IMG/VR virus record: IMGVR_UViG_3300028833_000004
DNA: 64,000 nucleotides
Reading direction: 5' to 3' (one strand)
DNA from: a virus
Under the pieces are notes generated by a model, which was given only the letters and a program-made list of their open reading frames with translations, had not been told where the DNA came from and ran no database searches. Shown piece after piece: positions 7,031 to 63,169 of this stretch. How positions within the stretch are numbered: the first letter of the stretch is position 1; every line of letters begins with the position of its first letter. The position numbers and the translations under genes are program-made.

Positions 7031-7305
7031 TTACTTTTAAAGATGTTACAGATAAACTGACTAAAATATATGAGGAAAAAAATCACTTTTATGGAGATAG
7101 TTTTGAAAAAACTTATGCACAATTTGGATTAGTTTCAGCTGTTGTTAGAATAAATGATAAAGTTAATAGACTCAACTCTCTTACTGCACTTGGTGGAATA
7201 TCAATTCCTAGGGAGGAGTCTATTGATGATACCTTATTAGATCTAGCAAACTATGCAATACTAACTTATTTAATTAGAAATAAAAACAATGATTTACCTT
7301 GTTAG
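7027..7305 (+). CDS. DUF1599-like small protein (nucleotide-modification-associated domain type); ends TAG-TAA
   Basis: KNHFYGDSF...VRINDKVNRL...DTLLDLANYA resembles the DUF1599 pattern from memory. TAG at 7303-7305 is followed directly by TAA at 7306-7308. Confidence 0.5.
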   Translation: MITFKDVTDKLTKIYEEKNHFYGDSFEKTYAQFGLVSAVVRINDKVNRLNSLTALGGISIPREESIDDTLLDLANYAILTYLIRNKNNDLPC

Positions 7306-9448: not shown

Positions 9449-9449
9449 T

Positions 9450-33800: not shown

Positions 33801-35472
33801 ATAATTCTCTATATTCAGCAATAGTTAATAATGTTTTTATTAAATATAAATTTCCAACAGATGGATTTGGTAAATTTTTTGATTCTTTAAATTCACGTAA
33901 AACTGTTTGATCTTTTAATGCCGGGGTTATTAGACTAGATCTTGGATCTATCATATAATTAAGCTATTTACTATCTGGAACAGGTACTATAAACTCATAA
34001 GAACCATCAGTATTTTTCATAGTTATAATACCCTAAGCCTCCAATGGTTCAAATTTAACATATTCCCATGAAGGACTCATATAGTGATATAATGTATAAG
34101 AGAATGCTGATGCCCAATCTTCATGTTTCTGTTTATTTAAAAAATTATTTAATGCCTCTATATTCTTCGTTTTTAGAATCTCTATAACAGTTAATAATGA
34201 ACCCTCAAATTTCTCTTTTATTGCTTTCTATTCTTGCTCTATTAACTCCTCTATAGTTCCTCTAACCTCTTCTTCGGAGTCTTTATTATATCCCACAAGA
34301 ATATTATTATCTAATTTTTTCCAAGATACTACAGTATTCTCAGCACACACTGGATACCATTCACGATCATTATTAACAGAGTTTTCAATCTACTATTTAA
34401 GATATTCCTTGGTAGACTTCTCCAAAATACGTCCCGTGCATAATATATCCACTCTGGTTTTTAGTTTTTCGTTATGCTTTTCAATTACTTCTTTTGGGAG
34501 AACTTTGCCGATTGTTGGAAATTTAGAATTTACAATTAATAGGGGGCCTTGTGAATTTTTTCCCAAACCTACTAATGGATCTTCAAAATCCTTAACTAAA
34601 ATTTCCTATTTTTCATTATAAACAAAATTAACATTTCGAATCTAAATTCTTTCCAAAGGAACGTTGAAAGTCTTAGAAACCAATTTTCTATAAAGTTCTA
34701 GCTATAAATAGTGATTCTATAACGTCGGGACACTCATAGAAATATTTGAACTTGTTTTAAAATCTAAAATAATCACATTTCCAGATTCTGTAAAAAAAAT
34801 CCCATCGGCACGTCCCTACAATTTTGTATCTCCATCCTTTATCCAAAGAGGCACTTCACATTCTAAATTTCCTTCTCCAAAAGTGTCTACTAAAGTTCGT
34901 TTAAAATTTTTAATACTCTGCTCTACATTTTTTGCAAAAATTGTTGGATCTTTTGAATCGAAGTGGAGTAGAAAATCTCTCAAGTGAATATTAAATGCAT
35001 CAGTCTCATCTCTAAACTATTTATTATCGACTAAGCTCTTCTAATAACTCTTGCAGAGTTCTATTAAATCATCTAAGGACTTTAAAGTCTTTTCCGAATT
35101 TCCATCAGAATACATCTAAATATATTTATGATATTTATCACCAAATAATCTTCTAAACTCTCTATAAAATTCCCTATTCTGTTTATTTACACCGTCTTCG
35201 GCAGAATCCTTGGAATAAAATTTCTACCCAAGACTAGTAACAGTATCAAATCCTGTAAGAGTTGAACTATCATAAGTCCTTCTATTTTCATTAATATGGT
35301 TCTATATATTATTAAATTCTTCTGAATGGGTACTATAAAATGTAAGGTCTTGATTTAAAGCCTCAGAAAATCTTTCAGAAATTACTTTTCCCTGAATCTA
35401 ACCTCTTAAGGCTTCTATTGTAGAAGCCTTAAGAGTTTCACCTTTATAATTTAATACATAAAAACAATTCAT
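30838..35472 (-). CDS. 1,544-aa late protein (TAG read as sense) with a PD-(D/E)XK-like motif and one C-terminal hydrophobic helix
   Basis: By hand, this phase has 0 TAA/TGA and about 45 TAG from ATG 35470-72 to TAA 30838-40. TAATG overlap with the upstream gene. Merges track fragments 30931..31500, 31738..31941 and 33226..33417. Confidence 0.8.
34756..34815 (-). other. PD-(D/E)XK nuclease-like motif inside the 1,544-aa ORF
   Basis: GRADGIFFTESGNVIILDFKTS, the same D...D-x-K-T architecture as + strand gene 20197..21264. Confidence 0.45.
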
Positions 35473-38400
35473 TACTTACATTCCTTAGTTATTTGTTTAA
35501 TTAACTCATCTTTTAGATATCTTGCCCTAATTTCCTGAATATCAGTATAATACCCCTGCTCATTTACAAAATTAACTCTGGCTTTTTGCATAAATGATGT
35601 TATTTTTTTATAATAAATGGCGTGGTTAATATCATAGGAACTTTGCGGAATCTGAAGATTTAAGCCCTTAAATAATTCCCTAAATCCTAAATTAATAGTA
35701 TTTAATAAGCCCTCTGAGGTTATTGTTTTTGATAAAGCTTCCTCAGACTTAATATAATCTGATATTCGATTCTCTATCTCCACAACAATTTTTTCATCGA
35801 GATCTTCTTCTGGTAAAGTTTCTCCGAGTCCTTTATAAAACTTATTAATAAGTTCCCAATACACAGTCGGCTAATTGGCTCTAAGATTTGCCAACATTAA
35901 GTGTGTGAACTCATGTAAACCAAATTTTGCAACATATTGTTCAACACTCTCTGTATCTGGTTTTTTAGAAATATTAATAAAAATCTAACCATCCTAAACA
36001 GTTGCATTCCATCTCTCCTTTGGGCTATTTACTATTTTTACATTTGTATGAAACATTTTTGACAGATGCTCTAAAATTTCCTGCCCATATCCATAGTCTG
36101 TTTCATTTATTATAGTCAATGGTTCAGCAGTAATCTTTTCAGAATATTGTGAAGGTTCCCTGTAAAGCATTCCATTTAATAGATGTGTTTTTTCTATCTA
36201 TAGTATTCCAGCAACATCTCCCTTAGAATTTATATATGAACATATTACATTATCAGTTCCTACTTGTAAAATCTAGTAAGCAATGTATGCACGATCTCCA
36301 GATTTAGTTGTCCCGACCTTTGTTATAACATCTCCAGTTTTTAATGTTGTATATTCTGTAACCTTTCCCACCTGATCTAATGAGTCTAAGTTAAATTCGT
36401 CATATTCATTTTTGCCATCGTAATAAACCTATGTTAGAGTATAAAACGTTTTTCTGCCTTTATCTGGTTTTATTATTGAAACTTTAGAATTTATAAAAGG
36501 TGCTGATTGAGCTAATTCCTGAATTTCATATTGTTTCTCAGATATTACTTGTTTAGGGATAATTTTATGGATAAATAAATCAGTGTCTTTTAATGCATTT
36601 TCCATAAATATTTCCCTAATGTTATTTATTGGAATTAATCGATCAGAAGTAGAAATTATAAACTAGTCATTTTGAACCTGTTTTATTGTCAGTTTCTGTC
36701 CATCATTTAATTCTATTGTATCTCCAAAAGTTAAATTGTTTAGAATTCTTAATTGTATATCTTTTCCCATATCCTAAAAATTTTCAACATGTAAAGTTTT
36801 AGTTTTTGATGTTGCTATAGAATTCTCTGGAGAGATATATGCATCTACATCCTACTGTTTAGTTATTGGAAATATAGCAGTATTAACTTTCGGAGTATTA
36901 ATAGATCTCAAAACCAGTATTGGAAGTATACCTTTTTCAGACTCATCATATAAAATATCACTAACAACATATGTAACTCCTTTAAATGTAACGACATCAT
37001 TAACTTTTAAATTAGTAATATTGATATGTTTTAGTTCATATTTTGTATAATCTAGAGTTGTATCAAATTCGTTTAATTTATAACTTCTATTTAATCTTAA
37101 TGTCTTGACCCTTTTAAATCCCTAATTCAAACCAAAGGTTAAATCAACTAATGGATTATCTAAATTTTTAATATTTGTTATTTTTACATAAATACCCTAC
37201 CCAGTTAAGTCTGAACCCATATAAATGTATCGTGTTCCATCCGAGTCTACTAATATATCTCCTTCCTTTGGTGCTATATCTGATTCTGCTTCTGAAACTT
37301 TCTTATAATAAATCTATTCATTAGTTAAAGCATTGGTATATAACTGTAAATTTGTCCAAATTTTTGATTTTATATAATTAGTCTACTAATTATCATCTAT
37401 AGATTTAATAAATGCCCTACATAGTTTAGATTTTTTAATTTTTTCAGACTTATTAAGTAAAGCTCTAATATTATCCTCAGTTATTCCTTCTGTTTCTGAT
37501 ACATAATTTAATATATAATTTAATTTATCAAAGTCTGTAGCAACCCTTCCAAGTTTACTAGATATATATAAGTGTAATAATGTAACTAATGTATCCTGTG
37601 ATAATTTACCGTTCTTATCCATTCCAATCTATTTCTCATTAATTACAATAATTGGTGCATTACCAATATACTCAATATGTGACAAAGTTTCACTTGATTT
37701 ATCCAATCTTATTATGACTGGTTGCTTTTCTTCAATAAATTTAATTAAATCATCTCCAAAAAGATTGTCTTCAACCTCTAAATTTTTAAACATCTCTGAA
37801 ATTGAAATATCCTACAGAAAGGTTCCTGAGTTTTTTGTACCAGATAAAAGACTTGCCCAATCACTCACTCTAGTTAGAATATGATTTCCTAAATCTGTTA
37901 GAGTTTTTTTCTCTATAAAAATAGGTCGACCATTAATTCTATCTTCATTAGTTTGATTAATTAAAACAGGATACTAGAATTTAGTAGTACTTTCCTTCGA
38001 AACTGCCGTTCCTGCAGTTTTTATAGTCACGTCAAGAATATACTACTAAGCAGTTTCAATTGATGCCCCTTCTCTAATATCAACATTTACAGTACTATAT
38101 AGAGGGCTTATTGTTTTTATCCAGGCTTCTATCGACTCTTTATTAAATTCAATATTTGCAGCAAATTCTTTCGGAGACATTGTTTGAATAAAAGACTTTT
38201 TTACTGAAGTTGTAACCCTTGTTTCCTTATCTGTATATGTTCCCTATTGAGCAAGTGCATTAGCGAAGGGTATTATATCAGCTCTCCAAGCGAGCATTTG
38301 CTTTACTGCTAAATTGCGCACTTCCATATTGGAACTTGCAGTTTTTTGAGCTACTTCATCTAAATATTCAAACTATTTATCTATATAATCTGTAATATTA

Positions 38401-41400
38401 CTAAATCTCTTCATATTTTGATATATACAAGTTGTGCTTCCTTTTATATCATTTCTTGAAGTAATAACATTATATAAATAAAAAAGTTCACCAATCGTTA
38501 AAGGTTTGCCTATAACACTATGTAATCCAGATGGAATCTGTGCTATCTAATCAAATCCTTCGGAAACCATATTTATACTAAAAGCAGTAGCTTGATCTTC
38601 TTTTGCTAAGAATGCATCTAAGGTTATATCGTAATAAGGTAATTCAGTTATATAATCTTTTACAACCTGTAATCTCTATACAAATGCATTATCTTTATAT
38701 TTTTTAATAATGCTTGGAATAAAGGCATTATTCATAAAATCAATAAATCTATCAACTTTAATAGAATCTGTAACACCAATAAATGCATCATCTACTAAAT
38801 CTTGGTTCCAGTTTGGAAATAATTTAGAAATCTCAGATTTTTTAATGCTATAATCACGCATCTCTTCTAATCCCTTTTGTATAAAATACTAGTCTATTAA
38901 TCTAAGTAATTTATTAGAATAATTAACATAATCTTTAGTTCCATTAGGAATTATTTGTGCGTATTCAATATTAGTCTCCCCATCATTATCTTTATCATCT
39001 TCAATATTAATATTTTCATCTAAATCTAAATCATCTAAAGAATGCTTATCTATAATGGATCTAAGTAATGATGCTTTTCCAATAGTCTAACTAATCAATC
39101 TAACAGTTTTACTGATGCTTTCAAGCTATTTATTAAAATGTGGGCTAGTTAAAACCACTCTCATTACATTTACACCAGATTTCGTAAACTGATACTGATC
39201 TAGGGCATTTTTTCTATACTCAGAGTTATTTGGATCAAATAGTCTATCAAAATTTAATGGCTCCTAACCATCTACCAATATATTTTTTCCAGGATTTCTA
39301 CTTAAGTAATCTTTAGCAATATTACGTTGATTCTGTGTTGAAATATTTATATTTTTAAATCTCTGAATTTTGCTTTTTGATAAACCTGTTAAAAATCCAG
39401 ATAGTTCAGTATATTTACTTTTAACTCCCTAATTTACTTTGAAATAACTTGTTAAATCTCTAAGTTCAGATGCTAAATCACATACTTTTAATAGTGATCT
39501 ATAAGTATTCTCATCAAATTCCTATGCGTGTTTTTGAATTAGTTTTTTAATATCATTAGTATCTAATTTTATCAAGGAAAATTTACTTGAGTCTAAATCT
39601 TTAGCAATGGTGTTCATTAAATTCACACATATATTAATAACATCGTCTATATGCATTCCATAAGTAATCATTGCTAATGGTAATGATAATAATTCTGGAC
39701 GCCCATTCATTTTTGCTAATGCTAACTCTTTAGCATTATCAGTTGCTAGAGATATAAAAATACTCAATGTATCAGCAACATTTGGTTCAAAGGACCTTGA
39801 AAAATATAAAAACTTTTTAAAAGCCTCTTCTGAAATATCATCAGATTTAATAACACCCATCTTTACAGCTGTTTCATAAACATCCATATAATGTGCACCC
39901 CTAGTTCCTAAAGCAGCCCACTATTTATTTTTAAACACCTATAATAGTGGATGCTATGTTATTCCAAACACTCTTTTATAACTTTCATCAAAGGCTTCCC
40001 ACGAAATTTTAGTATTAGCTAGAGTAAAGAAATGTTCATGAATATTCTTTGCCTCTCCTGTTTTCGCATCTATTACTGTAAAATTTAAATCTATATTAAT
40101 CTAGTCTTCAGGTGAAATTCCATTCTGTTGCATATTATAAAATTGCTACAAAGCCCCGGCAGCCTTTATAGCATTTGCGGCAATACCAACATCCGTTTTT
40201 CCAACAGCATTTTCTCGCTAAATTTCAAATATTGTAAATGGATTTAAATCATTATATTTCTTATTACCACCGGCATACTTTGTTATAACTTTAGTGACTG
40301 GTTTTGATTCCATAGGAACCTATGCAGCTTTTAAATTACGTAAATCAGACGCCGCTGAATATATGCCCTACATAATTCTATTCTTTTTAGCTGCTAAACC
40401 CTCATTCCAATTATTATATTTATTTAGGTTTTCAATTAAATCTGAAGGCTCTCCGATATAAAAAATATTTTTACTTTTATTTTCTTTATTATTTAAAAAT
40501 TTAAGAATATTATCTACAATATCTAATTTAGTTACTGGATCGACTATTGAGAATATAAATTCAATATCCTAAATAGTTAAAGTGGGTTCTTTTAAAACTA
40601 GAGAAAGCTCATTCCCAATTTGGATATCTAGTGATGTTATTAATGGAAGTTTTCTCTTAATTTTATCCGTTAATATTTCAGAGGCTTTTAATTTATTCAT
40701 ATCAACCCCACCATCCTCAGCTATTTTTGAAATTGTTTTTCCTGACGGACAGGTTAACAATAAAGATCTCTAAATAGTCTCTGGAGATGAATAGTCTGTA
40801 AATGCATTTCCAGCAATTCTTCCTCTAGAATCCAACTCATACATCATAGTATAAGCTTTATCTATATCATAGTCAGAACCCTGAAACCACATTTCCCATA
40901 TATTCATATAACCATTATTTTCAGAAGTTTCTGTAAATGCAACCGTTTCATTGGCCAAGAATGATTGAAATGCTTGCGATGGAATACGAGCAGATACAGT
41001 TTTTAATGAAGTATAAAAAGACTATTCTAATTCTTTAGTGAGTTTCTTAATAGATCCATCAATATCTTTAAGATTAAAGGACTTATGATTTAAAAAAGAA
41101 GCGTTTCCATAATAAGCATTGATATCTTTAGACATCGGTGAAAGGAGCACTCCCATATTTACTTTACTAATTCCCTAAATAAAAATTTCTATTTTAAGTT
41201 TTGAATTATTATTAGGTCTACTAATAGAAACTTTTAAATCATCTGCCCTTCCCTATAATTTAATCCCCTCAATAACTCGACCATACTCATCTGTTATTGA
41301 TACTGTTCCATCATTATTCTATATTGTATTTGAATTTATTAAATTATCTGAAATCTAATTAGCTGAAAAAATTATATCAATATTATCTAAAGCAACAGCT

Positions 41401-46539: not shown

Positions 46540-49500
46540 TTAAGTAATATTCTAACAGAATTCCAAAGAATCCGCAAAATCCTCGATTATCTTCCTAATA
46601 TCGTCTCTATCAAAATTACCCTAAATAAAACTACCAATTACAAACTATTTCTCATAAGCAAAATTAAATCCCAGTTCAATTACGCTTCTAATAAGTCCTC
46701 TATCAAGTTCAATAGTCTCACCATTAAAAGTAATTTGTGCGGGATCTGTAAGTATATAATTCTATAAATGAGTTATTACATTTACTAATGGGAGGTTGTA
46801 ATACATACCTCCAAGCTACTTGCCAAAAGCCTTTATATATTCAATAACGTCAGATCCACTTAATGTACTTCCATCGGATATTTTAACCTGCGCATTTATT
46901 AGTACCTGTTCAAAAGCTTTTTCAAACTCCTCAATATTTTCAATTGAATCTCTAGTGTCCGGTACATCTTTAGAATCATTTATAATTTCCAGATTACCTT
47001 CATCTATTACAAAATTTGCATATTCATAACCCCTTTCAACAATTATTGATTCTGGGGGGAGATTTATAAGATCCTCTATTGGTAGTGATTCATAGGCAAA
47101 CTCAGAAAGGTTTTTATTAATATACCTTAAAATAGGGTCTAAAATTAAGTCAAAATTGCCATTAGTAATACATGTATTTGCTAGATCAAATTGTATTGCT
47201 TTTCCAGTGGCTTCAGCTGTATTTTTCTATCTTTCAAACTAGGCTATCTATAACAAAGAGTCTACAAATGTATCTATTATATTTTTCTATAACCCTGATT
47301 CTCTTAGTGCTTCCTTTAATTTCTCTTTTAAAGATATGCCAGGCGTAGTTTCACCCGTAGATACAAATTGATCAAATTCATTTAATATCTATTTATATTC
47401 CGGATTTTTAACAGCGTGTAATAATAAATTTAATAGTTTGCGATGTCCATAAAAACCTAAGGTATGTTGACCCGAAACTGCTGGTCTAGATTTCCACCAA
47501 ATTCCATTATTTTTTTCAACACTGTCTCGATAGTATGTTAATATATCTGGAATTATTGACTTAACCTATATAGGAATTTTTTCACCTATAGGGCTTTCTA
47601 AGATTATCCAATATTGATCAGAAAAGTATTTAAGTGATTTTTTTCCCTCTTTTGTAAAAGGAAGTCCTCTATATTGCTCAAACCATTTTAAGAATTCATC
47701 TCCCTATGTATTAATGGTATGTTTAGTGGGATCCCAAACATCTTTTTGAGAATATTGAAATCCCATATCGATATAATTAGCCAAAGTAGTTCTTTTATAT
47801 TTAAACTGATCTCCAAGTAATTCATAATTCAACCCAAGCGTTGGATCGATAACTAAATCTCGCATACCAGTCTACTAATAAAAAGCTGAATTAGTGGATA
47901 CGTTCCCCATAAAAAAGCTTTTGGAACTTTTACTAATTAATTCAGATTTTCTTTTTGTTCCTTTCTGACGTAGTCTAACTACTAATGGAACTCTTCCACT
48001 ATCAAAATACTCAGAATAAAGATCTTTAATTAATTCACTACTTGTTCCATCTTCATCCTTTGTATATCCAATTCGCATAACAGTAAATGGGAATATTTTA
48101 ATTTCCCCATCATCTGTCATCTATAGTGTGACTGTTGCCCTACATATATTTTCTGGAATTGGATCTTTATCATTTATTTTTTCAAAAGCCCAGTCCTAGG
48201 TTTTATTATATTTATGAATTAATATTTCAAAATCTGAACCACGGACAGCTAAATCCTTTCTTAAAAAGAGTATAAAAGATTTAAATGATTTTAAAAAATC
48301 CTTACCAGAACGTAAAGCTAAATTTTTATCTATATTAAATCCTTTAGGGAGTTTATCTGCCTCTAGTAACATTTTAAAATGACCTACCTCAGAATTAGAA
48401 CTCCAGGCCTCCAACCATTTTTTATTATAACCTTTAATTTTTTTAATGGTTTCTCTAGATTCACCTGTTCTAATATACCATCCCTAACCTATAAAGAATT
48501 TGGAATCGTTTCCCCACTATTTAGAAATTCTTCGACTTATAGTTGATCTAGTTTTTTCTTTCGGAGTCTCAGATGATTCTTCAGATATTTTTTCTGAAGG
48601 TGTTTTAGATTCTTCTTCTGTCATATCGTCAATAACAGTCGAATCTAATTCTTCTAATTCAATATTAGTAAGCTCTTTATCTGGAATTTTTTTTACCTTT
48701 TCTGGAGACTCTTCTAAATCTTCTGTTTTTAATTTTGGTATTGTATTATCTAAATCTTCTAATTTTGGAAGTATTTGTTTGAGTGTCTCAGATAATTCCT
48801 ATCCAAAATTTGATGAGATTTTACTAAATAACGCCACATTTTTAACAACATGATCTTTATTTAAATTAACTGATTCAAATAAATCATCAGAATCAGCCTG
48901 AATAATTAAAACACCATTTTTACCACGTGTTATTGTTGTGTAGCATTTTGTAGCATTAGTCTCTGTTGAATGTATATCTGAATTTTTAGCCTTCTACTTA
49001 TATGAAATAACATAATCATATTCAGCGCCCTATAAATCTTTCAATGTTTTTATAACAAATTTGTCAGAGCCTAACCCAAAATTCTAAAGATCTGCTTTTA
49101 CCGCATCTGAATTATCATAACTATCAACAACTACTACAATACTTCCAGATATATTATCTATAACATTCTAAATTTCATCATTATCCTATGAATAATGGAT
49201 TCCTAAAAATCCATTTGATTTATTTATAGTATATTCAAAAGATATTTCTGATAAACCATCTAGTAAATCCCTAGAAGTATTACTATCCCACGCAGCATCA
49301 CGTTCAATATCTTGGTTACCAATGCCATAATGTTTACTATCTAAAGTAGATTTTAAAATAGAGGTGTTATAATTCATCGCTTGATTGTGAAACCTCCATC
49401 CGCCAGATAATTTTGGAATTGATATTTTTCCCAAATATCTTAATCCACCAGTAAATATTGCATTATTAAATTCAATAGTATCCGATTGCTAAGTTTCATC

Positions 49501-52500
49501 CCCCAAAGCTATAATAATACCCTTATTTTCAGACACCATTTTCTATAAAACAGCATATTCAAATGCATTTAATAAAGTACATTCGTCTAAAATAAAAGCG
49601 GTTTTATCAGAATTAATATAATGAATTTCTGGAAGTGTGTTAAACGTTTTTCTAGTTGGCTGGGAATCTTCTAAAATTTTACCATCTACTATAGGTAAAT
49701 GACATACAAATTCAATAACAGTTTTATCCCCATCTTTTATCTACACTATAATCTAGAGATCGTCTGGATTAGCTCTATTAATGGAGAAGCCATCTGGAAG
49801 TTCTACTTCTTCGCCCTTAGATAATTTAGAGATATTACTATTAATAAATTCCTCGGCCATCTTTTCATACTCTTTATAATTTTTAGAGTATGTTTCAAAT
49901 TTTTCATCTGAAATTAATTTATGTAACTATTTAGAAGTTACACTTTCATCAGAATCACCTCCAAATAATTTATATAACTCATCAGTTTTCTCCTAAGCTA
50001 GTGCTGTTGTTGCTATTTTATATCCCTTAGATTTTAAATAATCTTTTAATAAACTAGATATAAAGGTCTTTCCAGCGCCACCCTCACCAAATAAAAAGAT
50101 CATTCTCTCCATTTGATCCTTTATCCAGAGCTCTCCTGGGTTATTATTGATCTGATTATTAATATATCTATTAACTGAGTCAAATATTTTTGAGTTTTCT
50201 ATATAAGTAATTATCCATTCCAGTGCCTCGAGTTGATCCTATCTAGGATAAAAGTTTGGATTTTTATCAAGAACATCTTTCTATATTATAGTCTATACAC
50301 TTTTTGGATCTATGGCTAAATACCCAGAGAATTTATACGCCCAATAATATCCGTTAATTATTGAATTTCCAGCCGCGTCTTCCTGATAAATGTTAGTAAT
50401 ATCTGAATCGAAATCACATAAATTTATCCCAGAATCTGTTTTAGAAATTAAATTACCTGATATTAATTCTGATGGCATGATAATATTCTATATTATCCAA
50501 TCATCCAAATCATCAGAACCTGCCTGAGATACATATTTTTCTCTAAGTGCCCTAATATTTTTACAGATTTCCTATTCACATTTTAAAATAAATTCTAATT
50601 GTGCACTCTCATCATCTGGAATATCCTGATTAATAAGCTCTTCATCGAGAAGATAATAATCCTTTTTATCAGGCAAAGTTAGCTTAGGTCTTCCTTTATA
50701 AAAAGAAACTTTACTTTTTATAAATTTTTTCTTCTAAGCCTTAAATACCTGTAATTTATTAGCAGTTAATTCCGAACTAATCTGTTTTAAATCACTCAAA
50801 CGGAACTGAATATCGCTAATCATTGCTTTAACCATTCTAGCATCTTCAGGATCAATTAAACCTAATAAATCTTTTTTATGTGTAGGATCTCCATATGCAT
50901 TCAGATACTAAACACGCAACTGATTAAATCCATACATTCTCTAGTCCTTCTCTAAATCATATGAAGTCATTCCTTCTATGACTGCCATCATAACTTTTAA
51001 AGTTTGTATGGTGGAATCAATTGCTTCAAGTTCAGAATCTGAAAAATTGGTTTTTTCAAAGTCGCCTTCTCCACGCTAAACTTTTAATTCCTAATCAATA
51101 AAATATTTACCTAAAGTTGATCCTTTTGTTGTTCCATTTATAGCTAAATATAATTTATCAAAAACCCCCAATAATGGATTTTTTACCGCGGTTGAGCTAG
51201 TTACCTTAGTATTAAATTTGTTTATTTGATCAAATTCAGGCTGAAGATATTCTTTAAGAGCTTGCCCAACACTTGTTCCAACTGGATAAGTTATTCCAAT
51301 TATTTTAGAAAATTGTTCAAGTTCTTCTGGTGTATTTACTGGTTGGTAATCTTTACTTAACATCTCTCCGAATCTTTGTAAACCATCTAATGATTTTAAC
51401 GATAGATCTTGGAAATCTGATTCATATGCTACAAATTCATCCTCTCTAGCCTCAAAAAAAGGTCTTACTTTATTTAACTTATCAATCAACTATATCTTAA
51501 TAATCTACTCTATACGATCTAAAATACCCTATTCAACAGCATCATCATCCGCAATATAATCGTATAAATCATTGAACTATATTCCAGATATTTTAGATAA
51601 GTCTGCGTTTGAATTATAATTAATAACTCCAGAACGAATGTCTACAGTTGAGTCAGAAGTGTCTGCAAGTTCATTTATTCTATGTCTATATATAGAAGAC
51701 TCGTCTCCATATCTCTCATTTACACGGGCAATTAGATTTTTAACAGACTCTTCATTAAGTTCAACAAATCTTGCCGCAAAAGCTTCAGAATTAATTAATT
51801 CTGCCAAAACTTTTTTCTATTCATCATTAAATCCTACAAATTCAATAACTCCATTATCTATGAGGGCTTTAGCCCAGTTAGTCTACATTCTCTATTTAAG
51901 AGTAAATGCATTAGGATGGGCTTTTATATAAGATACTAGATTTTTAGTTCTAAATTCAGAATTTACTTTGTCAAGTTTGTCCTTAGCTGATGAAACATTT
52001 GCATCATACTAAATATCCTATTTTAACTCTTGACGAGCAGAAAGAAGCTATTTCTCTTTTTCATCATCATTCCAGGAGTCAATTAAATCTTTATCAAAAA
52101 AATGGTCTATAGGCAATTGATCTATATATTCAGATAAAGTTTCTGTATTAATTATAGACTTTTCAATAGCTTTTATTACAGCATATTTATGCTCCATATC
52201 AACAAACTTTGATAACTCTGGTGAGATTCTTTGTTGTATAGAATCAAATACATTGACCATTAAATCCACATATTTAACAAACTCTGGAGTAACTTCCCCA
52301 AATTTATCGTGTGTATATAACTTATATAATTCATCAACCTTAGCTTTGGTTAATTTATCTGGATCTGGAGAATCGTCTTCTAACTAATCATAACTTTTAT
52401 TAACTCCATCCTTATTTAAAACATTTTGATAAAAAGATTCTTTATCCAAACCTAATAAAGCTTGACCCAAGAATGGGTTAGATATTAAAGTTGCACCTGA

Positions 52501-54930
52501 ATATGAATCTACATAAGCTTCTCCAGAGAAAAATTGTCTAGAATATTTTAAGGCCTATTCAAATTTCTTTTTATTGAGTGCTTTTGTATTTTTAGGTTTT
52601 TTATCCTCATTTTCAACGGATTCAACTGATTCAGAAATATTAGGGTCTTTAGAATCTTTTGATTCTTCGGACTCTTCCAAAGAACCTGCGTAAACATCAT
52701 AGGCATCTTTTAAATCAATTAAGCTTGACTTAAAACGCTATTTAATATATTCCTCAACCTTTGTATCCTTCCAATCAGCTTTAAATTGTTGGATAAAAAT
52801 ATTTTTAACATCCTCATTTAAATTTTCAATTCCAGTTCCAACTAAAGAATCTTTAATAACCTTATCAATAGTTTCAACATGTTTAATAGCAGCATCAACA
52901 ATCATGTCTGCCTAAGTTATCTGCCCGTCCGCCTTCAATTCATGAACCTACCCGTCTTCACCTACAATACCTGTAGCAGCTCTCTTATTACTTAATAATT
53001 TTCTACACTTCTATAATTCATTTATAAGTTCATCTTTTCGACCATAAAATAGTGCATCTATGATATCATAATCTTTTTCTAGATCGAATCTAGACTTATA
53101 ATTAGGATCTATGAATGTTCTTCTAATCCAAGGATCTAAGTGCATTTCCTATACTGAAAATAAACCACCACCTAAAGCACCACCAATAAGAGTCTATAAA
53201 TATCTTGAGGCTCCTTCTTTACTAAATACATTCTACCATCCTCCAAAAGATCCCTATTTACCTGTAAAACCTAACCATGAAAGTGTATCAATAATTCCTT
53301 TAATGCTATCTTGAACAACTTCTTCAGAAACCTCTTCTACACCTTCAACTACCATATTTTTCCAAATATCCTCCCCAGAGGCTCTAAAAGCATCGTCTAG
53401 CCAATTTAAAGTCTTTGCTTTAAATGCTGATATACTATTTAATAAAGACTGTTTAGATTTTGTGGCAACTGCCTATTCAACGTCTTTCTAAATATCTGAA
53501 TATAAGGATTTGGCAATTTTTATAATAGGCCTTCTTGTAATTTCTCGATCATATCCGGTGGTAGCATCTAAAAACCATGTTCCAAGTCCATTGGCCGTTT
53601 CATTAAAGTTCATTATTCCAAACAATGCTGAGGCACTTAATAAACTGGCAATTCCAGCCGTTCTTTTATCATACCCGCTTTTAATTGCATCATTATAAAC
53701 ATCAGACACTGATATAAGACCCATATAACCTAAACTAAACGCTTTAGCCGCCTTATTCATTGATTCGGCATACTTTTTATAACGTTCAAAATCTTGGGCG
53801 GTTTTTAATTCCTTCGGAACTTTATATAAAAAATTGGCAAGGGATGCTGCAGCTCTCTATTGATATAACTGTCCAAATATATCTGAAAGCATATTTCCTA
53901 TTCCTTCAGCGGAAAATAAATTCTACTTACCTTTCTAAGACATACTTGGATTAAACTTTCTAAACCAATTCTCTAAAGATGTCGCACCATTATATATAGC
54001 AGATGAATCATCTCCTAAAAAGACACTTTCCATTGATTTATAAAAAGTAGGCATTACTGAAGCTAATCCCCAAAGGGCCTAAAATGCTCCATAATAAGCA
54101 TTAAATCCAGGAATCATATAAGGTAATACAGAAGCTATAGTCTTCATAGCAACTCCGCCTAATGATTTTTCATATCCATCAGAATCGAAGAAATCCATTT
54201 TATTTAATGTTGTTCCTTCTTTAGTCAGAACGTCCTATACAGCTACAACTTCTTTATCCAAAATTTCCCTATTGCCAAGTAATTCAGTAAAGTATTGGCC
54301 ATTCTCATCAGTAATAAATTCACCTTTGGCGTGGTATCCTTCCTCACCTGTTATAGGATTTTTCTAAAAACCGTCCTGATCATATTTAGCATAAATTAAT
54401 GTTTCTCCAAATAAATTGGAAAATAATCCTCGACTTTCTGCGGAATCCTTGAGTCTGGTTCCAGTTACAGGATCATATATTTTACCCTTCTATGCAGCTT
54501 CCCATGGGGTTAATTTAGGTTCACTTTGGACATTTAAACCTATTATACCAGTGGACTGCTGAAGGGGATTGTTTTTTTCTACTTCTGGTTTATAAAGAAC
54601 ATCTTTAACCCTAGCCCCAAGCGGTTTATATCTGCTGGTCGGACTATATTCTAAATACTGACTTAAATTATCCACCAGATGATCATTATCTAACTAAAAA
54701 TATCGCTGTTCAGCCAGAGTATAAATCTAATTAAATTCATCTTCTTTAAAGTTTCCCTATTCATCAGTAAAGGCTTTCTTTATAAATGGTTTGGATTTAT
54801 ATTCCTCCTTATCTAATAAAGCCGTATTATTAATATTTATATCATTCTATAAAAAATCAACTACGGTTGAACTGGGATCACTTAAAAGTGTTGCAACTAA
54901 TATATCATTCGGTTTTTGAATAGTATCCAT
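46540..54930 (-). CDS. 2,796-aa late protein (TAG read as sense) with an embedded SF1 helicase core
   Basis: The phase is open from ATG 54928-30 to TAA 46540-42 with 0 TAA/TGA and about 73 TAG (hand count). Merges nine track fragments that share one phase. Confidence 0.8.
48901..50088 (-). other. SF1 (RecD/Dda/Pif1-like) helicase motif set
   Basis: Walker A GEGGAGKT (50065-50088), motif II FILDECT (about 49576-49596), motif V-like LQGAEYDYVI, and motif VI YTTITRGKNGVLII (48901-48942). Confidence 0.6.
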
Positions 54931-54931
54931 A

Positions 54932-56800
54932 TTATTCCTAATTTAAAATATCACTACTGCTATAGATTTTCTTCGTTGGGTTTCTCTAAGTCATTTCAGT
55001 AATCATGTCCTATTCTAATGTTTTTGGAGTCATATTGCTGCCATGCCCAGCATATCTATAAGCGTCACCTGAAGCAAATTTATTAATTTTAATAAATATT
55101 GGAACTTTATAAATATCGTCCCACATTTGTTTACCATCAATAGATTTTATTCCAGTCTTCTTTGCTAAATTTTTATTATATATAGAATTGATAAGATTAT
55201 CAGCATATTCTTCATCCTTACCTGATAATTCCTCAACTAAATAATTTGAGCCATCTATATTATCATCTATGGTATAGCCATAAGTCAATAAGAATCTACC
55301 AAGTCTATCTGTTTCTATTAATTGGTTTTGAGAATTATACATAGCATATGAATGATGTGCAGCATGTATCTGATTTTTTTTATTTGGATCTGTAATTCCA
55401 TTAACCTTAATCTCTTCTTCGGCTTCTGAAAATGCATAAAATCCAGGCCAATCTATTTCACCATTCTCAAGTATAGGCATCCAAACTGCTGCAACAGGAT
55501 CATTAGAATATGCTATATTTGTAAGCATTCCTTCACTAATTTTCTAATCACCCATATATATTTTATCTTTTTCCAAATATTTTCCAACAGTTTCTGCCAA
55601 TGCAACAGACATTGGTAAATTATAAACAGCATTTCCATTATCAGTAGTAAGAGCTGGAATTCTAACTCCTTGTACATTTAAAGAATATGCATTAGAATTT
55701 TTATTATCTGTGATTTTAAATACATCGCTATTTAAATCCCCATCAAAAAACTGTTCTAATGGAGTCTGGTAAAAGGTTTTAGAACTACTAGAAGTTCCAG
55801 CAGTAGTTCCGGCAGCTTTATTAATTCCAGAATCATAATCTAAGGTTCTAGATACAATAGTATCATTATTCATTACTAAGGCATTTGAAATTAAATCCAA
55901 AGCATAGTTCGAACCCTCTTCCCATTTACCTCCGTAAACTAAATTCCTAGCCATCAACTGCATAGTCATTTGTTTCGGAAGCATTTTATAGATGTAACTT
56001 AAAGCAGAATCAATATTCTTAGATTTAACTCTATCTTTTACTTTAAATAAAGCATCTGGCCCAATTTGCTACATTAATTGAGCCAACTCTTTCAATCCCT
56101 AATACTGACTCTCATTAGGCCGCTTTAATAATCCATTTTGAATTATTCCACCTAATGTTTGATATGCTTCTGAAATATCATCGGCCGATCCAACTGATTG
56201 AATAATATCTTTAATATAATCCTAAATTTTTTCAATACCTATACTTCCACCAATTACAGTGATTGGATCCTCACTGTAAGCTAGTTGCGGATTGAATTGT
56301 CTATATTGAATTAATTCACCTATAGTTAAATATTGATACTTTTCTGGATCATATTTAGAACCGTGTATTTTCTATATTTTTTGATCCTAATCAACTACAT
56401 ATAAATATCCTCTAGAATCTATTGCAACTTCGTCAAGGGCTTTATTAGCTTCTGCATTTTCAGCTGCCCCATCAAAAAATCCATTAGTTTTTATTATTCT
56501 ATTTATCGCAGCCTATAGCATATAAACATCAGAACTCTTAATTCCACCATTAAAATCAGCGTTTCTCTCGAAGTCAGTCAATTTCTAAGAGAAAAGATCA
56601 ACATCTACAGGAAGTCCCTCAGAATATAATTTTTTCATTAATTCTTTAGGAATTAAATCCTAAGCTGAAGCTGAGCCTGAACCTGAATCTCCTCCGACAA
56701 CCTAAGACTATCTAGCCTAAACAGCTAAATTTGATACAGGATTAACAGTAGACGAATATAATAATCCACCAGCCTATAATTTATTTATATTTAATTTCAT
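54932..56800 (-). CDS. 622-aa late/virion hypothetical protein (TAG read as sense)
   Basis: ATG 56798-800 comes directly after an in-phase TAA. Ends at TAA 54932-34, one nt before the next ATG. About 16 in-frame TAG. Merges 55010..55528 and 55544..55984. Confidence 0.75.
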
Positions 56801-58662
56801 TTAAATATTGATTTTAATAAAATTAGAGTTTCTTTATCTATCTGTCCAAGATCTCTTTCTAATTGTCTTTGGAGCAATTTAGAGGTTTCTAATTGACTTT
56901 TACTAACTCTTTCACGCTCCTTCTGACTAGCTGCAATCCATTTAGATAACCTGTCCCCCTAAACAACCTTACCACCAGATTTTTTATATGGGATTCTAAA
57001 ATTACCCTAATCATCAAAGACTGATTTATAAGTACTTCTTCTATATTGTCCGGTGTACAAACCCTGATTATCAATATAATACGGAAAAATACCATTATGG
57101 AACTATGCCAAATCTCTAATTATTTGTAACTAACTTCTCCAATCGTTCTTAAGTCCTTCTAGTTCTTCTGCCCAATTTTTAGTTCTATAAGTATTTGATT
57201 GATCTCCCCACAAACGTTCATATACAGCTTCTTTAGCAGCCTCATCATCACCAGTCATAATAGCTTTATCCGCATCTGATAAAGAAGCCATTCCTTCATC
57301 TCTATTAAAGCTATTTTTAAAAGCTTCATAAGCTTTTGACTTTTTATAATTCATCATATCAGCCTAAGTTAAATACAACTTACGCTCATCAATAGCTGCT
57401 TTTAGATTATTTAATTCCCTAGATCTAACAATATCATTAACATCAGCATCATGTTTAAACTAACCATGATTAGTATACTTTCTCTCGCCGAACTGATTAC
57501 GATTAGAGGCTATTTCAGCATTTAATTGCTTATCAGCTTCAATAATAGCATTATTAGCAGCAGCATTGATCTAGTTGTTTTTATTTGCAACTTCGGCCTA
57601 TCGCAATAGATTATTATCAATTACCTACTATTTTATTTGTGTGGACTCATTATCTCCCTTCTACTATAACTATGCCTGATTATCCTATGTTTGCCGTGCA
57701 AATTCCAAACCCCCCTGATTTACAGCTAGCATGTTGTTTATATCATTAGACTTATACTAACTTATATTAGCTAATACATTATCCAAAGTTTTCTACTATA
57801 ATTGTCTGGTGACAAAATAGTTATACTTTTCAGAATTTAACCAGGGAGTCTCATAATGGGGATACTAAAACTTCTTTGAAAGACTATTATTTCTATAAGC
57901 TTTTAAAGTATTATTCAGATATTGCTAGGTAATAGGTGCCCAATCTGTCCAAATAGGTTTTTCTGCAGAGGCTTCATCATAAATTTCCTGTAATTTTTTA
58001 AGAGCTTTATCTTGGTCATATAATTCTTGACTTGGTGTTGTATTATTTCCACCTAAAGTAGCACCAGTTGTTTCTTGATTTTTAGAAGGGTCTGCCTAAG
58101 TATTAGTATTCTACCCACTAATTCCAGCCTCTGTCTAGGCTGGGTTTCCAGGCTATGCTACAACTGTTGTCTAGACTGGAACCCATTTATTTTGAGTTGT
58201 ATCAAAATAAATTTTTCCAGAATCTGTGTCTAGAGCTGACTCTGCAGAATTATGTTTCTATGCTAAAGCAGTTAATAGAGCATTTCTCTACCATGTGGTT
58301 GGACCAAGATAATCCGATCTATCCTTAGAATATCCGAAGTATTCATTAATTCCTGTAGTGTTAAATAAATTATTCCAATTGGTATATCCAAGTTTATTTA
58401 ATTCTTTACCCTTAAATAAATCTGGCTAAATTAACTTATTTAATGTATCGGCAGTTAGGCTTTTATATTTTTTGTTATCAATTAACCATTTATAAATAGT
58501 GCTGATGGGTCCATGATATGTATCCCAGGTATCTAAGGCTTTAGCTCTCAGATCTGTATCATTTATAGCATCCTTACGCCACCTACCCTTCTAAATAGGA
58601 GCTGCTGGAGTCTAGAATTTCTAGACCCCAGATCCCATTAATTTTTCAAAATTGTATTTCAT
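56797..58662 (-). CDS. 621-aa Gln/Asn-rich late hypothetical protein (TAG read as sense)
   Basis: ATG 58660-62 and TGA 56797-99, both in ATGA overlaps. About 30 in-frame TAG. Contains track fragment 57130..57357. Confidence 0.75.
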
Positions 58663-61600
58663 TGTAGTAATCCACCTTGTTTCCAAATAATTAACTCATT
58701 AGTTGCAGGATTATATGCAGACCCACGTAACTTTTTCCTAGGAAATATTCGTGATATTTCAGTAGGATCAATATTAATATATCCGTCTTGTTTTATACCA
58801 GAAGGAGGAGTTAAACCCACATAGGATTTAACTCCCGCATCATTCTTAATGTGTACATCCCCAATATGAAAATCGGATCCAATCTTCTTTCTAGATGTAC
58901 CATTATCCTAAATATTAACTGACTAAGGCACTTTATTACTTGTTTTACTCTACTATCTATCAGTTCGTGCCTTTTCTGCAGGCTGATGTCTAGGCGCCCG
59001 TTTAGTTTTATCTGATGCATTTGATGTACTGTTAATTGGGCTGAGTGCTGGTTTTATTATAGTTGCGTCCGATTCCTATCTTAATCTGCCCCAATCTACC
59101 ATTGGATTATATGCTTCATAGTGCATATTACTAAACTCCGGATGGTTTTCTAATATAGCTCTCTGTGTGGCTGTATATTCACCACCACCGAACCTTCTTG
59201 CAAATCTTCTAGCCAAATCCGATGACTATTTAACATCAGCAGCTTCTTTATTCCACAACTTTCTCAGAGCTTCATATGATTCACGCTAATTTTCAACATT
59301 TTCAGTCTCAATTCTATACTTACCAACTCCGCCATTAATACTTTGAAGTCTTGGGGTTTTTAATACTGCAACTGCCTCATCTTCAGTAATTTTAAGTTTA
59401 TCAGTAAGTACCTTAATGGCCTTTGTATTAGCATCCTAATCAGAAGTCTTAATTTTGCTAAGCGCCTTATTTACTTCATCAACGGTTTCTTTCTGGAATT
59501 GTTTTACATTTCCCTCTGCATCTGTGAGTCCTTTTATGCCGATATTATCTTTTGCGATAATAGTTCCCTTTTTATTAACTTTATAACGAGTTATTTCACC
59601 TTTAACACCTCTAGTGGCTCCTGCTAGTAATGATAAAACATGAGAAAGATTTCTCCAGTCCTCTCTATTTAATTTAGTTTTACCATCACTTAATTTCTTA
59701 AGGGTCTTCTATGTAGATTCATCGAAAGCAATGCCAAAGCCCGCCGCCACTGTCACTATTCTAGGTAGAAATTTAATAATATTTTTGGCAACCTTATGCA
59801 TTTTAGCTCCAGGAATTAATCCAAAAGCAGCAAAACCAGCATTTATCCCAGCATTTTTAATAACTTCACCAGCTGTTACTGCAGGATCCATAATATCAGC
59901 TGCCAAATCCGTTCCAAGTGATGTTACACCGAGCCCGGCAGCAACACCTGTACCAGCCCCAGGAACGAATGAAGCTACTATAGAAGCCACATCTTGAGCC
60001 ATAGTGAGAAATCTAAGAGAGTCTATAGGTTTTAACTCTGTTGTTTTATTAGCTCTATAAACATCTGAATTAGCATATCCTTCTTCAGAGGCCTTTTGGG
60101 AGTCTTTTTCTTCCTATTTAACTTCCCTACTCTTAGACTCTTCATGAAAATCTAAATCATTACGCTATTTTGGCACGGCTGAACCATAGGCAGCTTTTAA
60201 TATACCTCCATTATTATGTAAATTCACAGTTCCTTCAGGAATATTTTGTTTATTTAACTAATAATATTTAGTTCTAATCATCTATAAATCCTCGGGATTT
60301 AAACTAGCATATCCTTCATTAACAAGTATGCCAACTGTTTCAATTAAAGCCTATCTGGATTCAAATTGATTTAAAAACTCAGAACCTGTATATGTTAAAA
60401 ATGTTCCTGGAACAGATATTTTAGCTTTAGGATTCTTTAGCGCTGTGACAACTGAATTTACAAATCTCTAAGGATTATCACCAATAGTCTCTCTACCTAT
60501 AAACTAACCTAAAATATAACCCGCACCAGTTCCTAAAGCTCCTATTAAACCACCTAATGGGGCAACTGTTCCACCAGTTGGAATTCCTGCAGCCGTGGCT
60601 CCAGCAACGGCACCCACACCCATCGCCCCAGTAAGGGTTTTAAAATTAAATTTTTTAGTATAAGTATCTTTACTTATTCCCTAAGCATTATTAAATATAT
60701 CATTAGATAGCCCAACGATTTTCCCAGTTTGATCAGTTTTTTCACCATGTCCAGAAATATTAAATCCACCTAATGCATTTTTTGCATCATCAAAATTTCC
60801 TGTCTTCAATGTTGTTCCATCTAACCAGGCAAATTTCATAGTAGGAGTGAGTTTAAATTCTTTAAAAAGCCCCTACTTAATAGGTGTTCCAGTTTCATCA
60901 AAAGCAATAACCTAAGTACCATCTCCAAACAAATTACTTACATCAGCATAATTAAAGCTTGTGGCATTTTTATTTTTCTCTCTCTGATCATTAATAAATT
61001 TATTAACTAAATAATTATCTGTGTAATCAGTATCTAGATTAAAATCTCTTATATAAAACTAATTTGTTAAATCTCCCCTTCTATTCTTAGCTTCATCTAA
61101 TAAATAATTAGCCCAATGATTTTCATCAATATCTCTGACATTTCCATAAAATACTCGACCGTCAGAGCCTATTATAAGTCCCTGTCCATAGGTATCAGAA
61201 TTAAGACTAATGTTGTCTAAACCATCTCCAGAATATTTCTCCCAATCTGACGTATAAGCCGTAATATTACCAGCATCATCTTTAATCAGGTGTAAGTTCT
61301 TCTAAGTTAACCAATTTTTAAGAGGCTCTGAGAGATTAGTTAATTCAGTGCCATTTATCTAAGCACGATTCTTATCTTTTTGCGATGGCTCCTTAAACAG
61401 CTCAGGTAATGCTGCCTAAACTGTGCCTAAATCACCAGGAGATAATGTATATAATCCTTTAACTAGATTAATTCCCCAATTTATTTTATCGTTATCAGAA
61501 GCTTCGGGATTATATGTTGATAGATAATTCTAAAACTATTTAATTGAATTAATGGATTCTCTATCAATACCATTTACATATACACCTGTTCCATCACCAT

Positions 61601-62141
61601 ATTTATCTAGGAATTTTTGTATATTGAGATTTAATCGATCCTTTATCATTCCTAAACGATCACCAAATGAAAATGATGATAAACCTTCACCAATTCCATT
61701 AGTTAAATCAAAGAATATATGCCTTTTATTTTCAGGTTGTTGAGTGGTTGATGATCCCACACTAGCCTAAGGTTGAGCGGTGGTTCTTGATCTATTATAG
61801 TCGTACATTAATCGAGCTACATTTTGAGGCATATCCTTAGACCAAATAGATGGTTCATAAGCTGCACCAATAGAATCATCATTATCAGCCCCATTAAAGT
61901 GCTCTACTGTTGATTTATAAAACTATTCTTGTGCTAATCTTTGTCTCTTTGCTCCCCTAAAAACATTGGAATATGGGGCAGATTTTGAATATTCTACTAA
62001 TCCATCAAGATACTGTTGAACCGCTGCTCTATCCTCGTCTGTGGGGAGACTATTTAGGAAATCAAGATACTTTTTCTACTCTTCCTCAAGTCTTTTTAAT
62101 TCATCACCTTTTTTATATTTTTGTATCTAAGCCATAATCAT
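58659..62141 (-). CDS. 1,160-aa late protein with Gly/Ala-rich hydrophobic segments (TAG read as sense)
   Basis: ATG 62139-41 to TGA 58659-61 with about 29 in-frame TAG and no TAA/TGA. Merges 59709..60002 and 61536..61760. Gly-rich hydrophobic stretches at about 59720-60000 and 60520-60650. Confidence 0.75.
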
Positions 62142-62557: not shown

Positions 62558-63169
62558 TTAATCTGGTGATGAAACATACTCTGGGGTATTTGAATCCTAT
62601 TTATCTAGATATTTAAAAACTAGTCTACCAACACGTTTGTAATCAGCATCATCATCGGAATGAAAGGCACGAAGGGCAGCCTTAATCAAACTTCTAGTAT
62701 TTTTTCTAGAAAATATTCGCTCTCCACCAACTAATCTATACTAGACATCTCCATTATTATCCAAAACGAGCATATCTGAATTAACTTTCTATTTTTCATC
62801 GGAAGTTAATTGTGATTCATCTTCGTCATCATCATACTCCAAATCATCATCTTCCTAGATTCCAGAGTTAGCATTAACCTCTAAGACAAATTGAGCACCG
62901 CCTTCATATACAGGTTTTTCATCAAATGCTTTACAAGTATTTACAGACAATACTGATCCTTCATCATCTATGAAGATAATATCAAGGTCTATTGATGTAT
63001 CTTCCATAGTAAAGTACAATTCTTCCTAAGGTTCTTCATATACGAAAAGCATGCCTTCATCCTAAGGTAAGGATTCATCTTCAGATAAACCAATAGTTTT
63101 TTCTTCCTCTGTTTCGGCTACTCTTACATGGTACTTTTTACCGCCTATTGTTATATCAGTTTCTCTCAT
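62558..63169 (-). CDS. DUF192-like protein, 203 aa (TAG read as sense)
   Basis: Translates as ...GLSEDESLP(TAG)DEGMLFVYEEP(TAG)EELYFTMEDTSIDLDIIFIDDEGSVLSV..., matching the DUF192 GMLF / LDIIF core from memory. Six in-frame TAG. ATGA overlap upstream and TAA stop. Confidence 0.6.

Follow-up and report, generated by a model that had tools for sequence, protein, structure and literature searches.

An SF1B helicase domain within a giant TAG-recoded late protein encoded beside the putative virion RNA polymerase of a Zeta-type crAss-like phage

The viral record IMGVR_UViG_3300028833_000004 of the IMG/VR collection, of which we analysed a stretch of 64,000 nucleotides (hereafter the window), contains on its minus strand a gene for a protein of 2,796 residues, located directly before the gene of a putative virion RNA polymerase (RNAP). 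Motifs, profiles and a structural model of the closest homologue identify within this giant late protein a helicase of superfamily 1B (SF1B), composed of two RecA-like domains. It is a real feature, an uncharacterised variant of a known system rather than a new category. In a reading that we consider to have an even chance of being correct, it is a packaged and ejected giant cargo protein whose helicase opens the incoming DNA for the virion RNAP.

The initial annotation had described the gene as a single merged open reading frame (ORF), and this frame is sound. From position 54930 to 46540 it comprises 2,796 sense codons, including 73 in-frame TAG and no TGA, and the only TAA is the terminal one (46540-46542). 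Chance can be excluded as the origin of the frame, since TAA and TGA codons number 135 and 374 in the remaining two frames of this stretch. In homologues, glutamine is found at 16.7% of the columns that correspond to the TAG codons, versus a background of 4.2%. In addition, TAG codons encode two glutamine residues that are invariant in the family, in motif III (GDET-Q, residue 1812) and motif V (L-Q-GAE, residue 1967) of the helicase. Because TAG aligns with glutamine in homologues and encodes these invariant residues, the alignments indicate that it is read as glutamine in this gene. The annotated start is backed by the family-wide N-terminal sequence M..(I/V)(Q/K)KPNDI(L/F)VATL.

All four helicase motifs named in the initial annotation, i.e. 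Walker A, FILDECT, LQGAEYDYVI and motif VI, are located where it had placed them, and motifs Q, Ia, III and IV are present too, such that motifs Q, I, Ia, II, III, IV, V and VI follow one another in canonical order (Table 1). The complete SF1 motif set is thus genuine. In 121 aligned sequences of the family, the GxxGxGK of Walker A, the DE of Walker B, the GDxxQ of motif III, the arginine of motif IV, the QGxE of motif V and the arginine of motif VI are invariant or nearly so. The identity of the helicase region across the family is only about 18-34%, and conservation is low in the linker and at the C-terminus of the same 121 sequences. These alignments point to strong purifying selection on the helicase.

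Profile searches gave a consistent picture. The excised domain (residues 1548-2040) matches the Pfam families AAA_30 with 30.6 bits (cut-off 27) and Viral_helicase1 with 26.4 bits (cut-off 21); with the whole protein, AAA_30 scores 25.8 bits, just below the cut-off. Among 29 diverse family members, AAA_30 matches 27 and Viral_helicase1 23, and a few members have matches to UvrD_C_2, AAA_12 or PIF1. Two of the three profiles that the initial annotation had proposed to search (AAA_30 and Viral_helicase1) are therefore above cut-off with the excised domain, and the third, UvrD_C_2, is found in a few family members. A family helicase profile built from 29 sequences matches Upf1/NAM7 over both RecA-like domains (E = 2e-13, profile positions 49-456) and aligns end to end with nsp13 (E = 1e-11). 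Weaker matches are to IGHMBP2, Helraiser, Pif1 and RecD. The match to RecD (E = 2.8e-4) is limited to the N-terminal part, and that to Pfam PIF1 (E = 0.009-0.07) to the P-loop.

The helicase model was generated with AlphaFold (AF2) for the domain of the closest homologue (P0001, 40% identical overall), not for the window protein itself. It has a predicted local distance difference test score (pLDDT) of 85.8 and a predicted template modelling score (pTM) of 0.86. When it was compared with the PDB using Foldseek, the top 50 matches were all SF1B helicases or helicase domains, with a probability of 1.0, including SLFN11, RecD, Upf1, alphavirus nsP2, nsp13, Dna2 and RecD2. The template modelling scores (TM-scores) of these matches are only 0.33-0.45, values to be expected when an enzyme has two lobes and insertions. 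Among viral models, the best match is A0A8S5RTY8, a 'RecD-like protein [Siphoviridae sp. gcode 4]' (E = 7e-21, TMq 0.62), and a further one is a 'Helicase [Podoviridae sp.]'.

The assignment to a RecD/Dda/Pif1 type in the initial annotation was thus too specific: Upf1 and nsp13 rank far above RecD and PIF1 in profile comparisons, and the structural matches place these groups about equal. The domain shares all its motifs with the SF1B helicases Upf1, IGHMBP2, nsp13, RecD/RecD2, Dda and Pif1, and the homologue model has in common with them two RecA-like domains as well as beta-rich accessory insertions. However, identities to these enzymes are only 10-16%, with no subfamily clearly closest. Unlike its SF1B relatives, the domain is embedded at residues ~1550-2040 of a 2,796-residue protein with a unique N-terminal domain.

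That N-terminal domain (residues 1-640) is the signature of the family and its best-conserved part, with 67 invariant columns in 24 diverse sequences. Among its motifs are FFDSDGYEKS, EGVEEVSEEVVQD and GSFGGWQNVFS. The predicted structure comprises a small alpha/beta part and a long helical bundle (model pLDDT 75.6). We found no sequence relatives of it in Pfam, PHROG or the PDB, and its model has no significant structural neighbour, with weak, non-significant resemblances only to helical membrane transporters. The initial annotation had described the N-terminal ~1,600 residues as hydrophobic and Gly-rich, in the manner of ejected virion proteins. Such features do exist, namely one hydrophobic segment (residues 424-442, mean Kyte-Doolittle hydrophobicity 1.4) and the stretches GSFGGW and IGGALGGGLF. 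Nevertheless, the Gly-rich motifs are restricted to residues 1-640, and the part with features of ejected proteins extends over ~640 residues rather than 1,600.

The remainder of the protein is less constrained. At the position of the acidic stretch that follows the helicase (residues 2041-2125), relatives have acidic or Pro/Ser/Thr-rich stretches; this segment may act as a flexible hinge or be a site of processing. The C-terminal region differs in length and content among relatives, and in one of them (P0055) it contains an RNase_T (DEDD exonuclease) domain. In the window protein, the helicase is the only recognisable enzymatic domain, whereas the adjoining polypeptides of this and related loci carry disparate activities (RNAP and zincin, PD-(D/E)XK, ART-PolyVal). 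A match of the family hidden Markov model (HMM) to gp46 of the cultured phage crAss001 (E = 7e-8 in a five-sequence database) lies inside the low-complexity linker and was discarded as compositional.

Table 1. Positions in the window of the giant helicase gene, its domains and motifs, and the neighbouring genes of the late arm
Feature	Position	Strand	Remarks
Giant helicase gene, whole	46540-54930	-	2,796 aa, 318 kDa, pI 4.9, TAG read as Gln
N-terminal signature domain, aa 1-640	53011-54930	-	No known fold or family
Linker, aa 641-1547	50290-53010	-	Charged, poorly conserved
SF1B helicase core, aa 1548-2040	48811-50289	-	Motifs Q, I, Ia, II, III, IV, V, VI
Q-motif PRQDQ	50221-50247	-	
Motif I / Walker A GEGGAGKT, aa 1615-1622	50065-50088	-	GxxGxGK invariant in 121/121 family members
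Motif II / Walker B FILDECT, aa 1779-1785	49576-49596	-	DE invariant
Motif III ALGDETQQ	49486-49509	-	GDxxQ invariant, invariant Q = TAG codon
Motif IV GGWRFHNQ	49381-49404	-	
Motif V LQGAEYDYVI, aa 1966-1975	49006-49035	-	QGxE invariant, Q = TAG codon
Motif VI YTTITRGKNGVLII, aa 1997-2010	48901-48942	-	R invariant
Post-helicase linker, aa 2041-2125	48556-48810	-	Acidic, low-complexity, Glu/Asp/Ser/Lys-rich
C-terminal region, aa 2126-2796	46543-48555	-	Weakly conserved, no recognised domain
DUF192 protein	62558-63169	-	73.5 bits; synteny marker common to the P0001 locus and phage Lera
Three co-directional genes upstream (622, 621, 1,160 aa)	54932-62141	-	Overlap or abut the giant helicase gene; position of crAss001 cargo genes gp45, gp46
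Downstream neighbour, 3,685 aa	35472-46529	-	Putative virion RNA polymerase with C-terminal HExxH zincin-type motif
Last gene of the block, 1,544 aa	30838-35472	-	N-terminal PD-(D/E)XK nuclease (34639-35328), C-terminal transmembrane helix (31090-31146)

The family is large and metagenomic. A word-indexed search returned 185 relatives, mostly of 2,500-3,700 residues and carried by contigs whose length reaches 176 kb. With an HMM of the N-terminal domain, an exhaustive HMMER search identified 1,093 cluster representatives (50% identity clusters), of which 572 at E <= 1e-30. The signature domain is always at the N-terminus, and most of the matching proteins are 2,400-3,500 residues long. The helicase HMM matches 189 of the 217 full-length members, and in a further 24 a P-loop occupies the corresponding relative position (together 213/217). 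In a phage collection, megablast of the 40-60 kb segment and tblastn of the helicase domain gave no match, and tblastn of the N-terminus gave only two unannotated gut records. One of these, MT835470, is an 'unverified' gut phage record of GenBank that uses the standard code and encodes a full family member. PHROGs contains no family for the giant helicase protein or for its 622-, 621- and 1,160-residue neighbours.

The giant helicase gene belongs to a tight co-directional operon of the late arm, which codes successively for a DUF192 protein, proteins of 1,160, 621 and 622 residues, the giant helicase protein, and proteins of 3,685 and 1,544 residues. The portal, ring and muzzle genes of this genome are located outside the window. 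In relatives, a crAss_MUZ muzzle gene is followed by a small ORF, three mid-size ORFs, the helicase giant and the RNAP giants. We found the same order at the loci of three relatives, two of which have crAss muzzle Pfam families upstream. Altogether, the family gene is located between muzzle and cargo-type genes and a giant RNAP gene in all seven related places (six loci and a published gene table). The latter is that of Lera, a Zeta crAss-like phage (PV725988; PMC12386605 Table S1), in which ORF 191 (8,346 nt, 2,781 residues) is called a 'RecD-like protein'. The Lera series runs from the muzzle to DUF192, mid-size ORFs, the RecD-like protein, a 6.3-kb ORF, a homing endonuclease, a DNA-dependent RNA polymerase and a 4.6-kb 'exonuclease V' (PMC12386605), the latter at the position of our 1,544-residue gene. 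Because the gene order of the window matches those of its relatives and of the Lera table, we conclude that it comes from a Zeta-type crAss-like phage with TAG read as glutamine in its late genes, as has been described for this group. Lera ORF 191 resembles the giant helicase gene in size, recoding, location on the late strand and order of its neighbourhood, and on size, name and synteny it is a candidate member of the family. In Lera, however, the recoding is of TGA to tryptophan, whereas in the window it is of TAG to glutamine.

The downstream 3,685-residue protein harbours the sequence GSDYDIDK(AY) (40860-40874), similar to GSDFDVDK(LY) of crAss001 gp50 and to the catalytic DFDID of phage phi14:2, and near its C-terminus HEFTH (35901-35915), similar to HEAFH of crAss001 gp47. 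No Pfam match was found for it, and phmmer retrieved nothing from the PDB. Motif and synteny make it a putative virion RNAP with a zincin domain. As the initial annotation had proposed, a late helicase gene stands directly upstream of an RNAP candidate. This gene is TAG-recoded, and the replication helicases are encoded on the other arm. The polymerase-type and zincin-type motifs are found here in one polypeptide, and in crAss001 they are split over gp50 and gp47. This arrangement suggests domain shuffling or a polyprotein that is cleaved later.

The corresponding proteins of cultured phages are virion-borne. In crAss001, the genes after the muzzle code for two cargo proteins, gp45 and gp46, and for gp47, gp49 and gp50, which are RNAP-associated; all five were detected in virions by mass spectrometry. 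In phi14:2, the genes from the muzzle position through to the one that follows the polymerase gene are annotated as structural by tandem mass spectrometry. Like the giant helicase protein, crAss001 gp47, gp49 and gp50 and phi14:2 gp076-078 are giant late proteins encoded after muzzle and cargo genes, beside a DxDxD polymerase. With the giant helicase gene directly before the polymerase gene, in a slot whose crAss001 and phi14:2 counterparts encode virion proteins, its packaging in the virion is a reasonable inference from synteny. The ejection of the protein, its substrate, its polarity and its link to transcription are likewise inferred.

This context also bears on the alternative that the protein is not packaged at all, and acts in the cell as a late helicase for replication, recombination, concatemer processing or genome packaging, or as an RNA helicase or termination factor on late transcripts. 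SF1B helicases such as Dda, RecD and Upf1 commonly act in replication, recombination and RNA metabolism, and the adjacent 1,544-residue protein has a recombination-type PD-(D/E)XK nuclease. However, the gene is embedded between muzzle and cargo-position genes and the virion RNAP gene in all seven places, and the clustering with replication genes in relatives that would have spoken for an intracellular role was not seen. Furthermore, the early arm (plus strand, 1-30 kb) has its own replication genes, coding for a family A DNA polymerase, an AAA/clamp-loader-like ATPase, SNF2-like and DnaB-like helicases, NrdD, a ligase and an exonuclease. A soluble replication role also does not explain a conserved N-terminal domain of 640 residues and a linker of 900 residues. 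We consider this alternative distinctly unlikely.

The properties of the crAss-like polymerase suggest what a packaged helicase could do. The virion polymerase of phi14:2, gp66, efficiently transcribes single-stranded DNA (ssDNA) and denatured DNA but not double-stranded DNA (dsDNA), and QDE-1, its structural relative in eukaryotes, requires the helicase QDE-3 as well as RPA (Drobysheva et al.). Since the phi14:2 polymerase copies ssDNA and not dsDNA, and since QDE-1 needs QDE-3, the helicase may supply the missing dsDNA-opening activity. We propose that the late-expressed protein would be loaded into the particle and, on infection, be ejected into the host alongside the genome and the virion RNAP. 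Its N-terminal domain probably serves for incorporation into the particle, for passage through it or as an anchor at the conduit of ejection. Once phage DNA enters, the SF1B helicase would translocate 5'->3' along one of its strands at the expense of ATP and open the duplex, and the opened DNA would be the template of the QDE-1-like polymerase in early transcription. The motor activity might have a second role, that of drawing DNA into the cell. Poxviruses similarly have a virion RNAP that works with the helicases/ATPases NPH-I and NPH-II, both of superfamily 2 (SF2). These couples of a polymerase with a dedicated helicase or ATPase, QDE-1/QDE-3 included, are no more than a functional analogy: QDE-3 belongs to the RecQ type of SF2, and none of these partners is homologous to our helicase beyond the P-loop fold.

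Several points weigh against the proposal of an ejected helicase. The family HMM found nothing credible in crAss001 gp45-50 or phi14:2 gp076-082, and the cargo proteins of these phages, unlike the giant helicase protein, have no P-loop or helicase. The N-terminal domain had seemed by eye to share similar strings with crAss001 gp47, but an hhalign probability of 1.9% for its profile against the gp47 family led us to reject homology. Early transcription in cultured phages whose block is devoid of a P-loop proceeds without such a helicase, which weakens the proposal, although crAss001 and phi14:2 could rely instead on some other factor, of the host or of the phage. To pass along the tail, a protein of 318 kDa has to be unfolded. 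Finally, SF1B helicases act on RNA as well, so DNA is only one candidate substrate.

A more elaborate form of the proposal is a tethered injection motor, in which the N-terminal domain would be fixed at the cytoplasmic mouth of the ejection channel while the helicase, on its ~900-residue linker, would reel in the genome. The displaced single strand would then be handed directly to the promoter-independent, QDE-1-like virion polymerase. We regard this form as unlikely. If true, it would describe a self-contained, injectable 'entry plus first transcription' machine, a bacterial-virus counterpart of QDE-1/QDE-3/RPA that only the abundant Zeta lineage would have.

Another possibility is that the protein is an injected anti-defence effector, whose helicase or translocase would protect the incoming genome instead of serving transcription. 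It might remove complexes of restriction, RecBCD or CRISPR systems from the DNA, move ahead of them, or remodel the ends of the DNA. The precedent is that of polyvalent proteins, which are injected, multidomain, associated with zincin peptidases that process them, often endowed with a helicase, and proposed to counter defence or to jump-start transcription (Iyer et al. 2017, PMC5512222). Like these and like DarB of phage P1, the giant helicase protein is very large and is encoded among late and virion genes, and its delivery with the DNA is implied by context. The adjoining giants contain zincin and PD-(D/E)XK domains, the downstream giant of a relative an ART-PolyVal domain, and the variable C-terminal region extra domains in some relatives, such as the RNase_T domain mentioned above. 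In contrast, whereas proteins of the DarB type combine an EcoKI/TaqI-like adenine methylase with an SNF2 helicase of SF2, we detected no methylase or other recognisable anti-restriction domain in the giant helicase protein, whose helicase is of the SF1B type and its sole recognisable enzyme. SF1 (UvrD-type) helicases are reported in polyvalent proteins only for actinomycete conjugative plasmids (PMC5512222). In addition, a near-universal helicase at a fixed position, combined with an invariant N-terminal domain, resembles core machinery rather than a fast-evolving counter-defence module. An anti-defence function thus appears improbable.

The conservation pattern could also be read in favour of a structural or assembly role, with the P-loop domain powering or gating the loading, unfolding or ejection of cargo, or serving as a non-enzymatic scaffold. 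The N-terminal domain, not the helicase, is the best conserved part, and cargo proteins must unfold to traverse the tail. However, the conserved motifs are not just those that bind ATP but also the nucleic-acid motifs Ia, III, IV and V, there is no ATP within the virion, and no protein unfoldases are known in the SF1B fold. A role of this kind is very unlikely in our view.

Other features of the window complete the picture. TAG-interrupted ORFs are confined to the minus-strand arm (30.8-64 kb), whose long ORFs need TAG as a sense codon; TAG recoding is a published mark of the late genes of crAss-like phages. The number of in-frame TAG per ORF is 5-93 on the late arm (30838-64000, minus strand) versus 0-1 on the early arm (1-30012, plus strand). 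At ~30 kb the arms converge, and the sign of the GC skew is reversed there. No tRNA genes, suppressor or other, were found within the 64-kb window. On the early arm, the family A DNA polymerase ORF (7289-10679 region, plus strand) matches only the C-terminal part of its PHROG profile (658-1230 of 1445) and is directly followed by an HNH endonuclease ORF (9450-10679, plus strand); the polymerase gene may have been split, or a mobile element may have inserted into it.

On the late arm, the 1,160-residue protein (58659-62141, minus strand) has Gly-rich hydrophobic segments at residues 526-544, 718-739 and 788-806, and it occupies the position of the crAss001 cargo protein C1 (gp45), thought to form a trans-envelope channel. 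The 1,544-residue protein matches the exonuclease-like phrog_298 (E = 1.4e-6) and has a strongly hydrophobic helix at residues 1443-1461; no Pfam match was found for it. It fits the description of a PD-(D/E)XK domain in the transcription-block giant of some crAss-like phages (Yutin et al.). In relatives, the ART-PolyVal domain, an ADP-ribosyltransferase, is found in a downstream giant (L005, 25272-30362), and a LAGLIDADG endonuclease ORF lies between two large ORFs downstream of the helicase giant (L002, 24328-24987).

For crAss-like phages, published work already describes the giant 'transcription block' with its DxDxD, zincin and PD-(D/E)XK domains, and the recoding of late genes. As for the helicase, the initial annotation knew of no characterisation, which is true of its function; by name, both Lera ORF 191 in the published table and A0A8S5RTY8 in UniProt were already 'RecD-like' proteins. 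These names were given without functional analysis, and the main text of the Lera study says only that TGA disrupts a 'helicase' (PMC12386605). Our literature searches found no work on a virion-packaged phage helicase or on a helicase in the virion proteins or transcription block of Crassvirales.

The significance of the giant protein depends on where it acts. Outside the virion, it would be no more than an unusual late helicase of very large size. If it is packaged, it would be the first SF1B helicase shown inside a phage particle, and it would extend the concept of polyvalent injected proteins. The packaged crAss-like polymerase copies only ssDNA in vitro. A helicase that is near-universal in this lineage and encoded beside it among virion genes, catalytically intact as judged by its motifs, is an obvious candidate for the missing template-opening factor.

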